Shown here piece by piece: positions 3,603 through 64,000 of a stretch of DNA of 64,000 bases (the stretch's first letter is position 1; every line of letters starts with the position of its first letter). The position numbers were made by a program, and so were the translations under genes. The stretch is taken from NCBI RefSeq assembly GCF_003334765.1, contig NZ_QOWT01000003.1. The stretch is one strand, 5' to 3'. Origin of the DNA: Escherichia coli (lineage in GTDB: Bacteria; Pseudomonadota; Gammaproteobacteria; Enterobacterales; Enterobacteriaceae). The notes under the pieces were generated by a model. That model saw only the letters and a program-made list of their open reading frames with translations. It did no database searches and was not told where the DNA came from.

Positions 3603-3679
<77 letters not shown>

Positions 3680-5073: not shown

Positions 5074-5171
5074 GCCGGATGCGGCGTGAACGCCTTATCC
5101 GGCCTACAAATCATGCAAATCCAAAATATTGCAGGAGTTATGTAGGCCTGATAAGCGTAGCGCATCAGGCA
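5074..5171. repeat. REP/BIME element (two inverted REP units)
   Basis: gccggatgcggcgtgaacgccttatccggcctaca and tgtaggcctgataagcgtagcgcatcaggca, a typical REP consensus in opposite orientation. Coordinates approximate. Confidence 0.8.
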
Positions 5172-7917: not shown

Positions 7918-8148
7918 ATGATGAAAAAGACTGCCGCAATTATTTCTGCCTGTATGCTGACTTTTGCCCTGAGCGCCTGTTCCGGTTCGAACTATGTGAT
8001 GCACACCAATGACGGACGTACCATCGTCTCTGACGGCAAACCACAGACTGATAACGATACCGGTATGATTTCGTATAAAGACGCTAATGGCAACAAACAG
8101 CAGATCAACCGTACTGACGTGAAAGAGATGGTCGAACTGGATCAGTAA
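7918..8148 (+). CDS. ygdI: DUF903 family lipoprotein YgdI
   Basis: ORF starting [23 protein letters not shown] (signal peptide plus lipobox); the true start may be the second ATG at 7921. Confidence 0.85.
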
Positions 8149-8165
8149 TTCGCGATCGCAAGGTA

Positions 8166-8370
8166 AAAAAAAGCACCGCAATTAGGCGGTGCTACATTAA
8201 TCACTATGGACAGACAGGGTAAATGTACAGGAAGTGAAAAAAGGTAGCTTTGCTACCATGGTCTGAATCGCAGACCAATTGCAAACACAACAACACAACA
8301 TCACAACCGTAAGCCAAAAGTTCACCAGAACACGCATTCCGATAAAACTTTTCGTTCCGGCTCAGGAAGT
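8166..8370 (-). ncRNA. gcvB: GcvB small regulatory RNA, divergent from gcvA
   Basis: The reverse complement matches the GcvB sequence as I recall it (ACTTCCTGAGCCGGAACGAAAAGTTTTATCGG ... GCACCGCCTAATTGCGGTGCTTTTTTT), including the GU-rich region and terminal terminator. Ends approximate. Confidence 0.9.
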
Positions 8371-8498
8371 GCCGCCACTATAGGTATTTGCTGGTAGAAG
8401 CTCAACGGACAATTTATAATGGCTAAGATTAAAAAAACTAATAGGTTACATAGTGTGATCTAATTGTTAAATTCATTTAACATCAAAGTTTAATAGCC

Positions 8499-9416
8499 AT
8501 GTCTAAACGATTACCACCGCTAAATGCCTTACGAGTTTTTGATGCCGCAGCACGCCATTTAAGTTTCACTCGCGCAGCAGAAGAGCTTTTTGTGACCCAA
8601 GCCGCAGTAAGTCATCAAATCAAGTCTCTTGAGGATTTTTTGGGGCTAAAACTGTTCCGCCGCCGTAATCGTTCACTCCTGCTGACCGAGGAAGGGCAAA
8701 GCTATTTCCTCGATATCAAAGAGATATTTTCGCAATTAACCGAAGCGACGCGTAAACTCCAGGCCCGTAGCGCCAAGGGGGCGTTGACGGTCAGTTTACT
8801 CCCCAGTTTCGCCATTCATTGGTTGGTTCCGCGACTTTCCAGCTTTAATTCAGCTTATCCGGGAATTGACGTTCGAATCCAGGCGGTTGATCGTCAGGAA
8901 GATAAGCTGGCGGATGATGTTGATGTGGCGATATTTTATGGTCGGGGCAACTGGCCGGGGCTACGGGTGGAAAAACTGTACGCCGAATATTTATTGCCGG
9001 TGTGTTCGCCGCTACTGCTGACTGGCGAAAAACCCTTGAAGACACCGGAAGATCTGGCTAAACATACGTTATTACATGATGCTTCGCGCCGTGACTGGCA
9101 GACATATACCCGACAGTTGGGGTTAAATCATATCAACGTTCAGCAAGGGCCAATTTTTAGCCATAGCGCCATGGTGCTGCAAGCGGCTATCCACGGGCAG
9201 GGAGTGGCGCTGGCAAATAACGTGATGGCGCAATCTGAAATCGAGGCCGGACGTCTTGTTTGCCCGTTTAATGATGTTCTGGTCAGTAAAAATGCTTTTT
9301 ATCTGGTTTGTCATGACAGTCAGGCAGAACTGGGTAAAATAGCCGCCTTTCGCCAATGGATCCTGGCGAAAGCCGCTGCTGAACAAGAAAAATTCCGCTT
9401 TCGTTATGAACAATAA
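8499..9416 (+). CDS. gcvA: LysR-family regulator of the glycine cleavage system
   Basis: 305-aa ORF with an N-terminal HTH (LNALRVFDAAARHLSFTRAAEELFVTQAAVSHQIK); matches GcvA. Confidence 0.95.
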   Translation: MSKRLPPLNALRVFDAAARHLSFTRAAEELFVTQAAVSHQIKSLEDFLGLKLFRRRNRSLLLTEEGQSYFLDIKEIFSQLTEATRKLQARSAKGALTVSLLPSFAIHWLVPRLSSFNSAYPGIDVRIQAVDRQEDKLADDVDVAIFYGRGNWPGLRVEKLYAEYLLPVCSPLLLTGEKPLKTPEDLAKHTLLHDASRRDWQTYTRQLGLNHINVQQGPIFSHSAMVLQAAIHGQGVALANNVMAQSEIEAGRLVCPFNDVLVSKNAFYLVCHDSQAELGKIAAFRQWILAKAAAEQEKFRFRYEQ

Positions 9417-26541: not shown

Positions 26542-26908
26542 GTCGACAGGGAGTCAGACAACGAAGTGAACATCAGGATGATGACACTTCTGCAGGACAC
26601 ACCAGGATGGTGTTTCAGGGAAAGGCTTCTGGATGAAGCGAAGAGGATGACGCAGGACGCGTTAAAGGACACCTCCAGGATGGAGAATGAGAACCGGTCA
26701 GGATGATTCGGTGGGTCAGGAAGGCCAGGGACACTTCAGGATGAAGTATCACATCGGGGTGGTGTGAGCAGGAAGCAATAGTTCAGGATGAACGATTGGC
26801 CGCAAGGCCAGAGGAAAAGTTGTCAAGGATGAGCAGGGAGCAACAAAAGTAGCTGGAATGCTGCGAAACGAACCGGGAGCGCTGTGAATACAGTGCTCCC
26901 TTTTTTTA
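26542..26908 (+). ncRNA. csrB: CsrB regulatory RNA (CsrA-sequestering sRNA)
   Basis: About 367-nt non-coding stretch starting GTCGACAGGGAGTCAGACAACG, with six exact CAGGATG repeats plus about ten further GGA-containing variants (AAGGATG, CTGGATG, GAGGATG, CAGGAAG), ending in the hairpin gggagcgctgtgaatacagtgctccc followed by TTTTTTT. Confidence 0.93.
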
Positions 26909-26952
26909 TTCCTGCTATCCTTCGCGGCAGTTTTTCTTATTGAGGTTGCTTT

Positions 26953-59167: not shown

Positions 59168-60967
59168 ATGACGACACAGGTCCCACCTTCCGCGTTGCTT
59201 CCGTTGAACCCGGAGCAACTGGCACGCCTTCAGGCGGCCACGACCGATTTAACTCCCACCCAGCTTGCCTGGGTTTCTGGCTATTTCTGGGGCGTACTCA
59301 ATCAGCAGCCTGCTGCGCTTGCAGCGACGCCAGCGCCAGCCGCAGAAATGCCGGGTATAACTATTATCTCCGCCTCGCAAACCGGCAATGCGCGCCGGGT
59401 TGCTGAAGCATTACGTGATGATTTATTAGCAGCAAAACTGAACGTTAAGCTGGTGAACGCGGGCGACTATAAATTCAAACAAATCGCCAGCGAAAAACTG
59501 CTCATCGTAGTGACGTCAACGCAAGGGGAAGGGGAACCGCCGGAAGAAGCCGTCGCGCTGCATAAGTTCCTGTTCTCCAAAAAAGCGCCAAAGCTGGAAA
59601 ACACCGCGTTTGCCGTGTTTAGCCTCGGCGATAGCTCTTATGAATTTTTCTGCCAGTCCGGGAAAGATTTCGACAGCAAGCTGGCGGAACTGGGTGGTGA
59701 ACGCCTGCTCGACCGTGTCGATGCCGATGTTGAATACCAGGCTGCTGCCAGCGAGTGGCGCGCCCGCGTGGTTGATGCGCTTAAATCGCGTGCGCCTGTC
59801 GCGGCACCTTCGCAATCCGTCGCTACTGGCGCGGTAAATGAAATCCACACCAGCCCGTACAGCAAAGACGCGCCGCTGGTGGCTAGCCTCTCTGTTAACC
59901 AGAAAATTACCGGGCGTAACTCTGAAAAAGACGTTCGCCATATCGAAATTGACTTAGGTGACTCGGGCCTGCGTTACCAGCCGGGTGACGCGCTGGGCGT
60001 CTGGTATCAGAACGATCCGGCACTGGTGAAAGAACTTGTCGAACTGCTGTGGCTGAAAGGCGATGAACCTGTCACCGTCGAGGGCAAAACGTTGCCTCTG
60101 AACGAAGCGCTACAGTGGCACTTCGAACTGACCGTCAACACCGCCAACATTGTTGAGAATTACGCCACGCTTACCCGCAGTGAAACACTGCTGCCGCTGG
60201 TGGGCGATAAAGCGAAGTTACAGCATTACGCCGCGACGACGCCGATTGTTGACATGGTGCGTTTCTCCCCGGCACAGCTTGATGCCGAAGCGCTAATTAA
60301 TCTGCTGCGCCCGCTGACGCCGCGTCTCTATTCCATTGCCTCCTCGCAGGCGGAAGTCGAGAACGAAGTACACGTCACCGTTGGTGTGGTGCGTTACGAC
60401 GTGGAAGGCCGCGCCCGTGCCGGTGGTGCCTCCAGCTTCCTCGCTGACCGCGTGGAAGAAGAGGGCGAAGTCCGCGTATTTATCGAACATAACGATAACT
60501 TCCGCCTGCCAGCCAATCCAGAAACCCCGGTGATTATGATTGGCCCAGGCACCGGCATCGCGCCGTTCCGCGCCTTTATGCAGCAACGTGCTGCCGATGA
60601 AGCGCCGGGAAAAAACTGGCTGTTCTTTGGCAACCCGCACTTTACGGAAGATTTCCTCTACCAGGTGGAGTGGCAGCGCTACGTCAAAGAGGGTGTGCTG
60701 ACGCGGATCGATCTCGCCTGGTCGCGCGACCAAAAAGAAAAAGTTTACGTACAAGACAAACTGCGCGAACAGGGCGCGGAGCTGTGGCGCTGGATCAATG
60801 ACGGTGCCCACATTTATGTCTGCGGTGACGCTAATCGCATGGCGAAAGACGTTGAGCAGGCACTTCTGGAAGTGATTGCCGAATTTGGTGGCATGGACAC
60901 CGAAGCGGCGGATGAATTTTTAAGTGAGCTGCGCGTAGAGCGCCGTTATCAGCGAGATGTCTACTAA
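59168..60967 (+). CDS. cysJ: Sulfite reductase [NADPH] flavoprotein alpha subunit
   Basis: 599-aa ORF with flavodoxin plus FAD/NADPH reductase domains; matches CysJ. Confidence 0.96.
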
Positions 60968-62679
60968 TGAGCGAAAAACATCCAGGGCCTTTAGTGGTCG
61001 AAGGAAAACTGACAGACGCCGAGCGCATGAAGCTTGAAAGCAACTACCTGCGCGGCACCATTGCGGAAGATTTAAACGACGGTCTGACCGGCGGCTTTAA
61101 GGGCGACAACTTCCTGCTGATCCGCTTCCACGGCATGTATCAGCAGGATGACCGCGACATCCGCGCCGAACGTGCTGAACAGAAGCTGGAGCCGCGCCAC
61201 GCGATGCTGTTGCGCTGCCGTCTGCCGGGTGGGGTGATTACCACTAAACAGTGGCAGGCGATAGACAAATTTGCCGGTGAAAACACCATCTATGGCAGCA
61301 TTCGCCTGACCAACCGCCAGACGTTTCAGTTCCACGGCATTCTGAAAAAGAACGTCAAACCGGTGCACCAGATGCTGCACTCGGTTGGTCTTGATGCGCT
61401 GGCGACCGCTAACGACATGAACCGTAACGTACTCTGCACCTCGAACCCTTACGAGTCGCAGCTACACGCGGAAGCGTACGAGTGGGCGAAGAAGATTTCT
61501 GAGCATCTGCTGCCGCGTACCCGCGCGTATGCGGAGATCTGGCTCGACCAGGAAAAAGTCGCCACTACTGATGAAGAACCGATCCTCGGCCAGACCTACC
61601 TGCCGCGTAAATTCAAAACCACGGTAGTGATCCCGCCACAGAACGATATCGATCTGCACGCCAACGACATGAACTTCGTGGCGATCGCCGAAAACGGCAA
61701 GCTGGTGGGCTTTAACCTGTTGGTGGGCGGTGGGCTTTCCATCGAACACGGCAACAAGAAAACCTACGCCCGCACCGCGAGTGAGTTTGGCTATCTGCCG
61801 CTGGAGCATACGCTGGCGGTGGCCGAAGCCGTCGTGACAACTCAGCGTGACTGGGGTAACCGAACCGATCGTAAAAATGCCAAAACCAAATACACGCTGG
61901 AGCGCGTGGGGGTTGAGACGTTTAAAGCGGAAGTGGAGCGTCGCGCGGGGATCAAATTTGAACCGATCCGTCCATATGAGTTCACCGGACGAGGCGATCG
62001 TATTGGCTGGGTTAAGGGCATTGATGATAACTGGCACCTGACGCTGTTTATCGAAAATGGTCGCATCCTTGATTATCCGGCGCGTCCGCTGAAAACCGGC
62101 CTGCTGGAGATCGCGAAGATCCACAAAGGCGATTTCCGCATTACGGCGAACCAGAATCTGATCATCGCCGGTGTACCGGAAAGCGAGAAAGCGAAGATCG
62201 AGAAGATCGCCAAAGAGAGCGGGTTAATGAATGCCGTCACGCCGCAGCGTGAAAACTCAATGGCCTGCGTGTCATTCCCGACTTGCCCGCTGGCGATGGC
62301 GGAAGCGGAGCGTTTCCTGCCGTCTTTTATCGACAACATCGATAATTTAATGGCGAAACATGGTGTCAGCGATGAGCATATCGTGATGCGTGTAACAGGC
62401 TGCCCGAACGGTTGTGGTCGCGCGATGCTGGCGGAAGTGGGCCTGGTGGGTAAAGCGCCGGGTCGCTACAACCTGCATCTTGGCGGCAACCGCATTGGGA
62501 CACGTATCCCTCGGATGTATAAAGAAAACATCACCGAGCCGGAAATCCTGGCGTCGCTTGATGAACTGATAGGGCGCTGGGCGAAAGAGCGCGAAGCGGG
62601 TGAAGGCTTCGGCGACTTTACGGTGCGTGCGGGCATCATTCGCCCGGTGCTCGATCCGGCGCGCGATTTGTGGGATTAA
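60967..62679 (+). CDS. cysI: Sulfite reductase [NADPH] hemoprotein beta subunit
   Basis: 570-aa ORF; ATG overlaps the cysJ stop; siroheme/4Fe-4S Cys motifs (CPNGC, TGCPNGC). Confidence 0.96.
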
Positions 62680-62695
62680 CCATCAGCCCGGTCTT

Positions 62696-62733
62696 GTAGG
62701 CCTGATAAGACGCGTGAGCGTCGCATCAGGCAA
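62696..62733. repeat. REP element between cysI and cysH
   Basis: tgtaggcctgataagacgcgtgagcgtcgcatcaggca. Coordinates approximate. Confidence 0.75.
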
Positions 62734-62752
62734 GGCAAACAGTGAGGAATCT

Positions 62753-63487
62753 ATGTCCAAACTCGATCTAAACGCCCTGAACGAACTGCCGAAGGTAGAT
62801 CGCATTCTGGCGCTGGCGGAAACTAACGCCCAACTGGAAAAACTGGACGCTGAAGGCCGCGTAGCCTGGGCGCTGGATAATCTGCCCGGTGAATATGTGC
62901 TTTCTTCCAGCTTCGGCATTCAGGCGGCGGTGAGCCTGCATCTGGTGAATCAGATTCGGCCGGATATTCCAGTGATCCTCACCGATACCGGTTATCTGTT
63001 TCCGGAAACCTACCGCTTTATTGACGAGTTAACGGACAAACTCAAGCTCAACCTGAAAGTGTACCGTGCTACCGAAAGCGCCGCCTGGCAGGAAGCACGC
63101 TACGGCAAACTGTGGGAACAGGGCGTTGAAGGCATTGAAAAGTACAATGACATCAACAAAGTCGAACCGATGAACCGGGCGCTGAAAGAACTTAACGCGC
63201 AAACCTGGTTTGCTGGCCTGCGCCGCGAACAATCCGGCAGCCGCGCCAATTTACCGGTGCTGGCAATTCAGCGTGGCGTATTTAAAGTGCTGCCGATTAT
63301 CGACTGGGATAACCGAACTATTTATCAGTACCTGCAAAAACATGGCCTGAAATATCACCCATTATGGGATGAAGGATATTTATCGGTCGGTGATACCCAT
63401 ACAACCCGTAAATGGGAACCTGGCATGTCGGAAGAAGAAACACGTTTCTTTGGCTTAAAAAGGGAATGTGGATTGCACGAAGGGTAA
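62753..63487 (+). CDS. cysH: Phosphoadenosine phosphosulfate (PAPS) reductase
   Basis: ORF-track frame 62600..63487; the 244-aa product starts at the ATG at 62753 ([21 protein letters not shown]...), ending ...ECGLHEG. Confidence 0.95.
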
Positions 63488-63751
63488 ATATTGCCGGATA
63501 AATTAAACGCCTCTGTCAGAAATGATGGGGGCGTTTTTATTTTGCGAGCAGTATTCCTGATTTTAAACGTGAACGCCGCTGGAAGAATTATCAGGTATAG
63601 AATGGCGTCGGGTGCTTGAGGCTGTCTGGCGTTAAGCATTCGCGAGGTTCCAGATGGACAAAAGCCCCAGGCGATATTTCTATCAACCTGAGGCTTACGT
63701 TCGAACCCAAACAATTCGAATGTTAGTCTCTTCTTTGCAGGGAGGCAAGAC

Positions 63752-63904
63752 ATGCTGACAAAATATGCCCTTGTGGCAATCATAGTGCTGTGTTTTACAG
63801 TACTGGGATTCACGCTGATGGTAGGCGACTCGTTGTGTGAGTTGAGTATCAGAGAACGTGGTATGGAGTTTAAGGCAGTTCTCGCTTACGAATCGAAGAA
63901 GTAG
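63752..63904 (+). CDS. Hok/Gef-family type I toxin-like small membrane protein (50 aa)
   Basis: Not in the ORF track (under 60 aa). ATG at 63752 preceded by GGAGG 6 nt upstream; product [50 protein letters not shown] has one TM helix, the conserved LCE motif and the C-terminal AYES motif of Hok/Gef proteins. Confidence 0.75.
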
Positions 63905-64000
63905 CCACCACGCGGGGGTAAAACCCATAAGCGCTAACTTAAGGGTTGAACCATCTGAAGAATGCGACGCCTCGGTGCCTCGTTAAGACGATGCCTCGCG

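Follow-up and report, generated by a model that had tools for sequence, protein, structure and literature searches.

The gcvB small RNA gene of the ygdI-gcvA intergenic region in an Escherichia coli contig and its conservation among the Enterobacterales

Described GcvB systems and the gene in the window

GcvB is a Hfq-dependent small RNA (sRNA) with a regulon of transporters, as shown for a K-12 sequence that is identical to the one reported here (PMC9299463, PMC4474525), and both Hfq binding and target repression by the K-12 RNA have been documented with RIL-seq, CLASH, MAPS and reporter assays (PMC9299463). Its direct targets include more than 50 mRNAs for amino acid and peptide transporters and biosynthetic enzymes, which are contacted mainly via the seed regions R1 or R3, with R2 used only for cycA (PMC9299463). 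The gene is activated by GcvA at high glycine levels, with GcvR as the antagonist (PMC9299463, PMC1557403). In the part of the work of Sharma et al. (2007/2011) that is related in PMC9299463, the Salmonella enterica GcvB has the same five stems, the same R1, R2 and R3 regions, Hfq dependence and control by SroC. About ten nucleotides differ between the Salmonella and E. coli RNAs (PMC9299463), while phoP and some other targets are specific to E. coli as compared to Salmonella (PMC3536696). The GcvB of Yersinia pestis likewise has two terminators giving RNAs of ~130 and 206 nt, is activated by GcvA and repressed by GcvR, and is encoded divergently from gcvA (PMC1557403). It is ~77 % identical to the E. 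coli RNA and incorporates two extra base pairs between the t1 stem and the T-run (PMC1557403), but lacks an eight-nucleotide insertion in R1.

The window analysed here comprises 64,000 nucleotides of an E. coli contig (NZ_QOWT01000003.1), and is collinear with the chromosome of K-12 MG1655 in reversed orientation at 99.8-100 % identity, so that a K-12 coordinate equals 2951066 minus the window position. The following genes are located in the region of interest:

7921-8148, plus strand: ygdI, lipoprotein gene, convergent with gcvB (open reading frame; RefSeq annotation mapped from locus L001)
8165-8370, minus strand: gcvB sRNA gene, 206 nt (Rfam RF00022 match and identity to K-12 b4443)
8499-9416, plus strand: gcvA, LysR-type activator of gcvB and gcvTHP, divergent from gcvB (305-amino acid open reading frame; RefSeq annotation)

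A first-pass annotation had placed GcvB on the minus strand of the ygdI-gcvA spacer, as a known gene, and proposed an Rfam covariance-model search as a check. The minus strand of 8165-8370 matches RF00022 over its full length (model positions 1-204 of 204; E-value 1.1e-46), at 199.0 bits, the gathering score being 42 bits, and is identical in 206/206 positions to K-12 gcvB (b4443), the annotated ncRNA of which (NC_000913.3, 2942696-2942901) maps exactly onto these window coordinates. The placement and the status as a known gene were thus borne out. The locus had also been given correctly, while its extent, set at 8166-8370, fell one nucleotide short within the terminal U-run. With a probability of about 98 %, this stretch represents the E. 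coli gcvB gene, an ordinary, already characterised textbook gene. It has the same neighbours (ygdI and gcvA), promoter, terminators and GcvA site as in K-12 MG1655, and an identical RNA, and differs outside the RNA in carrying an A at window position 8425, where K-12 has a C. Locus L102 of S. enterica subsp. arizonae can be aligned with the window RNA throughout.

The gcvB region is present in 5426/5426 complete E. coli genomes, with the RNA at least 99 % identical in 5390 of these. One of the 5430 gcvB matches in the genome collection is plasmid-borne. In E. coli OkiPb01677 (NZ_AP042483.1, ~3137711-3137985), the matches are split between two separate places and only GcvB nucleotides 1-125 are contiguous with gcvA, which suggests that an insertion interrupts gcvB after t1 in this strain. 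The predicted fold energy of the GcvB RNA (-62.1 kcal/mol; z -3.6) is lower than that of all 200/200 dinucleotide shuffles.

RNA anatomy and covariation among homologues

Using a numbering in which GcvB nucleotide n corresponds to window position 8371-n, the following elements could be distinguished on the minus strand:

8312-8362, minus strand: SL1, long 5' stem-loop, nt 9-59 (Rfam consensus structure and compensatory changes)
8277-8311, minus strand: R1, single-stranded G/U-rich linker, nt 60-94 (composition, centroid fold and alignment)
8259-8277, minus strand: SL2, nt 94-112 (Rfam structure; three pairs with double-sided changes)
8237-8257, minus strand: SL3, internal terminator t1, GGTAGC-AAA-GCTACC at nt 114-128 followed by U6 at nt 129-134 (terminator scan)
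8223-8236, minus strand: R2, conserved CACUUCCUGUACAU, nt 135-148 (columns invariant or nearly so in the alignment of 106 sequences)
8194-8226, minus strand: SL4, nt 145-177, including the R3 seed at nt 148-174 (8197-8223) (Rfam structure)
8165-8193, minus strand: SL5, terminator t2, 8-bp GC-rich stem with 6-nt loop at 8172-8193 and U8 tail at 8165-8172 (terminator scan)

R1, the main seed for target mRNAs (PMC9299463, PMC3536696), consists of 87 % G+U over nucleotides 63-93 and is largely unpaired in the centroid fold. Its conserved core, GUUGUGAUG...UUGUGUUUGCA, is found in the window RNA between SL1 and SL2, and E. coli-type copies carry an insertion of eight nucleotides (UUGUGUUG) relative to the Rfam consensus. 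R2 has been linked to cycA repression (PMC9299463, PMC3658540), while the R3 seed lies within SL4 and its nucleotides 148-174 pair with the phoP ribosome-binding region (PMC3536696). Two sites of the SroC sponge have been reported, BS1 in SL1, around G14/G18, and BS2 in SL4, around G156 (PMC4474525). The terminator scan places the t1 hairpin at 8257-8243, followed by T6, and use of t1 would yield a short GcvB form of ~130 nt. The use of t1 and t2 is described in PMC1557403, which cites Urbanowski (2000) for it. The t2 hairpin, AGCACCGC-CTAATT-GCGGTGCT at 8193-8172, is followed by T8 at 8172-8165 and lies 16 bp from the ygdI stop codon (8146-8148), in agreement with the hairpin and T-run that had been noticed beside this stop. 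SL5 and the U8 tail would be expected to form the Hfq-binding 3' module. All published parts of GcvB are present in the window, and every element needed by the published mechanisms is intact.

Homologues were retrieved from one genome per species with a pattern for the R1 core (GTTGTGATG, 0-12 nt, TTGTGTTTGCA), which identified 120 loci, 111 of them in Enterobacterales. The remaining nine (Oscillospiraceae, Ruminococcaceae, Bacteroidota, Prevotella, Clostridia, Thermoplasmata and a Kroppenstedtia MAG) have odd gap lengths and were excluded as chance matches; an Rfam scan of four of these (L116, L021, L074 and L093) gave no GcvB match, while five divergent Enterobacterales loci matched GcvB at 135-162 bits. 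The 20-nt pattern class, comprising Yersinia, Photorhabdus and Proteus, also lacks the eight-nucleotide R1 insertion. In all 99/99 GcvB loci with enough upstream DNA, gcvA is encoded divergently on the opposite strand, with a gcvB-gcvA spacer that is typically ~120-130 bp (range 99-296) and measures 128 bp from the gcvB start to the gcvA ATG in the window. Twelve further loci were too short for gcvA orientation to be judged.

The window RNA and 105 distinct homologues (106 sequences) were aligned with MAFFT, which is blind to structure, and the Rfam consensus pairs were projected through the window row of this alignment. Standard base pairs occur in 86.4 % of the cells, compared to 33-50 % when the partners are slid by one to three columns. 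The covariation score amounts to 0.148, compared to values of 0.03-0.07 with the slid partners. Double-sided changes were observed in 148 cells, a number that was reached in 0/500 shuffles (53 +/- 5 cells). In SL1, compensatory changes affect nine of the fourteen pairs of the two upper helices, while the lower helix is 100 % paired. Three pairs of SL2 show double-sided changes, with the pairing percentage of this stem lowered because of a register shift of the MAFFT alignment in the Yersinia/Photorhabdus group. SL3 is paired in 92.8 % of cells and incorporates three covarying pairs, and SL5 is paired in 97 % of cells across species but is nearly invariant and thus uninformative for covariation. 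None of the five SL4 pairs shows compensatory changes among the 105 homologues and its loop sequence is invariant across species, so that it is the sequence rather than the stem which is conserved; support for the SL4 stem therefore comes from the Rfam model and published probing, on which basis it can be considered probable. The R2 and R3 columns are invariant or nearly so across the 106 sequences, as is most of R1, where part of the conservation of the core stems from the retrieval pattern, which was itself derived from R1.

Inside the GcvB RNA, a mechanical open reading frame for 46 amino acids (MRVLVNFWLTVVMLCCCVCNWSAIQTMVAKLPFFTSCTFTLSVHSD) occurs at 8197-8337 on the minus strand, starting at GcvB nucleotide 34, and could be taken as evidence that the region encodes a small protein. 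Its ATG is, however, located in the apical loop of SL1 and is preceded by AAAAGUUUUAUCGGA, with no Shine-Dalgarno sequence at a usable distance, and the homologous start codon is absent in 40/106 aligned homologues. The homologous open reading frames are scattered in length (46, 44, 29, 24 or 9 codons, or without a closing stop), and the frame is shifted by indels of a length not divisible by three, for example the eight-nucleotide R1 insertion. Furthermore, conservation follows paired stems and exposed seeds rather than codons, and GcvB RNAs have been stated not to be translated (PMC1557403). The loss of the start codon, the scattered lengths and the lack of a Shine-Dalgarno sequence effectively refute a coding function for this frame, which we regard as having a negligible chance of being correct. 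The present analysis directly shows the identity of the locus as gcvB, its anatomy and synteny, the covariation of its structure and the conservation of the promoter and the GcvA site.

Promoter, GcvA sites and a rare substitution

The region between the gcvB start and gcvA contains the following elements:

8377-8405, minus strand: gcvB sigma-70 promoter, -35 TTGAGC (8405-8400), 17-bp spacer, -10 TATAGT (8382-8377) (promoter scan)
8406-8420, no strand: GcvA site IR2, degenerate, centred at -43 from the gcvB start (centre position from PMC5002191)
8428-8442, no strand: GcvA site IR1, ATTAA-AAAAA-CTAAT, centred at 8435, i.e. -65 from the gcvB start (published position and motif)

The promoter is correctly spaced for a transcription start at 8370. 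Among 91 distinct upstream sequences from the Enterobacterales, TATAGT is found at -12 to -7 in 78, and TTGAG[G/C] is conserved at -35 to -30. Two GcvA inverted repeats of the ATTAG-N5-CTAAT type have been placed at -65 and -43 relative to the start of gcvB, the latter degenerate (PMC5002191). Across the Enterobacterales, ATTAG-N5-xxAAT is conserved at -72 to -58 with fixed spacing, and the IR2 region at -43 is likewise conserved across species, with the IR2 sequence of the window (CGGACAATTTATAAT) being a poor match to the repeat. The CTAAT pentamer is not enriched in the window (62 observed, 98 expected), and the case for IR1 thus rests on its position and conservation. CTAAT was rejected as a stand-alone signal, given this lack of enrichment in the window and a second copy at 8460-8464 that is not conserved across species.

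A perfect plus-strand TATAAT (8415-8420) overlaps IR2 and can be considered the putative -10 element of gcvA. With the gcvB -35 at 8400-8405, this would mean that the two promoters overlap. The GcvA site, which the first-pass annotation had proposed to look for between the two divergent promoters, is present at the published -65 position, but is not simply situated between them. IR1 lies upstream of the gcvB -35 and over the putative gcvA start region, and this placement, together with the apparent promoter overlap, is in keeping with GcvA activating gcvB and repressing its own gene at the same time.

The sole difference between the window and K-12 in 8130-8520 is the one at 8425, with A here and C in K-12 on the plus strand. 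This position is -55 from the gcvB start and a T on the gcvB strand, on which G occurs in 80, A in eleven and T in none of the 91 distinct Enterobacterales upstream sequences, and only 18/5426 complete E. coli genomes have an identical 81-nt segment at this site. The position is flanked by the two GcvA repeats, follows the putative gcvA -10 by a few bases, adjoins the putative gcvA start, and falls inside the 48-bp GcvA DNase I footprint of Wilson et al. (1995), as far as this is related in PMC5002191. In view of its position, it is conceivable but improbable that the A at 8425 alters the activation of gcvB by GcvA, or the autorepression of gcvA, in this lineage; if it did, the variant would shift the set-point of the amino acid uptake regulon, which would be of modest interest.

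Neighbourhood, regulation and relevance of the locus

In a genome annotated with PGAP that matches 8100-8520 at 100 % identity, the interval between ygdI and gcvA holds no annotated feature. The remark in the first-pass annotation that the open reading frame track leaves this region unexplained was therefore accurate, the reason being that PGAP-style annotation omits gcvB.

The region might alternatively be no more than the ygdI 3' untranslated region with its terminator, plus gcvA promoter DNA, with no independent transcript. The t2 hairpin lies 16 bp past the ygdI stop and a terminator scan predicted no plus-strand intrinsic terminator for ygdI, so that t2 might also serve this gene. The T-run after the t2 hairpin is, however, found on the minus strand only, and a conserved leftward sigma-70 promoter is present at the right distance. 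The 206 nt are conserved far above neutral intergenic DNA and the similarity stops exactly at the T-run, right after which it collapses across species, while the covariation speaks for a minus-strand RNA and the K-12 annotation includes an ncRNA at this place. An absence of any independent transcript is accordingly hardly credible, and the locus is best read as gcvB. The sole hairpin 3' of the ygdI stop (8149-8200) is the t2 stem, which on the plus strand is preceded by an A-run and not followed by a T-run. On account of this, ygdI transcription may read antisense into gcvB or use the t2 hairpin bidirectionally.

The control by GcvA and GcvR, Hfq dependence, targets and the SroC sponge can be attributed to this locus by analogy, from the literature on the identical K-12 sequence. 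When glycine is abundant, GcvA would bind the -65 repeat and the weaker -43 site and activate the gcvB sigma-70 promoter, while GcvR would block this activation when glycine is scarce. GcvA bound there would also cover the overlapping gcvA promoter, and it is proposed that it thereby represses its own synthesis. Transcription would proceed leftwards from 8370 and stop at t1 (~130 nt) or at t2, giving the functional RNA of 206 nt, which would associate with Hfq. Its exposed seeds, mainly R1, also R3 and occasionally R2, are predicted to base-pair with C/A-rich stretches close to ribosome-binding sites, lowering the translation and stability of the targets. The gltI mRNA fragment SroC base-pairs with SL1 and R3 in K-12, thereby triggering the decay of GcvB by RNase E (PMC4474525), and the same pairing would be expected to lead to RNase E degradation of the RNA encoded here. 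None of the window genes sdaC, sdaB, argA, mltA, csdA and ygdI is among the GcvB targets in PMC9299463.

Several other features were observed in the window. CsrB, a second well-known regulatory RNA that open reading frame tracks would miss, is encoded at 26551-26910 on the plus strand (full-length match to Rfam RF00018, 380 bits). In Edwardsiella hoshinae (L034, 1673-2017), CsrB is located ~6.7 kb from gcvB, compared to 18 kb in the window, and the two sRNA genes thus share a neighbourhood across the Enterobacterales. A weak Rfam match to the ES036 (CssrF) sRNA (46.5 bits; threshold 37.6) occurs on the plus strand at 5107-5149, between tcdA and mltA. A single initiator tRNA-Met gene is encoded on the minus strand at 3603-3679, where K-12 (metZ, metW and metV) and strain 550 have three in tandem. 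The window is short of exactly 220 bp at this locus, equal to two 110-bp repeat units, which could reflect either a real deletion or an assembly collapse. A hok/sok-type toxin-antitoxin locus is found at 63610-63905, with an intact 50-codon Hok open reading frame at 63753-63905 on the plus strand. Homology to K-12 ends at 63754, and K-12 thus keeps only the sokX leader, beside cas3. The Rfam 'sok' match is on the plus strand, which is the strand of the hok mRNA leader, while sokX of K-12 is annotated on the opposite strand. The 63600-64000 segment is matched over at least 80 % in 4235/5426 genomes, the best matches being annotated as 'Hok/Gef family protein'. Seventy of the 80 differences between the window and K-12 cluster in 60328-63697 (~3.4 kb, on the cysI-cysH side), while the first 58 kb contains nine SNPs; this cluster looks like a recombination boundary beside the hok/CRISPR-cas region.

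The relevance of the locus is one of annotation, and it opens no new question. An open reading frame-based track leaves an unexplained gap of 350 bp at gcvB, whose product ranks among the most global of the Hfq-dependent sRNAs of E. coli, and recognising the gene keeps a well-known regulator from being flagged as unexplained.
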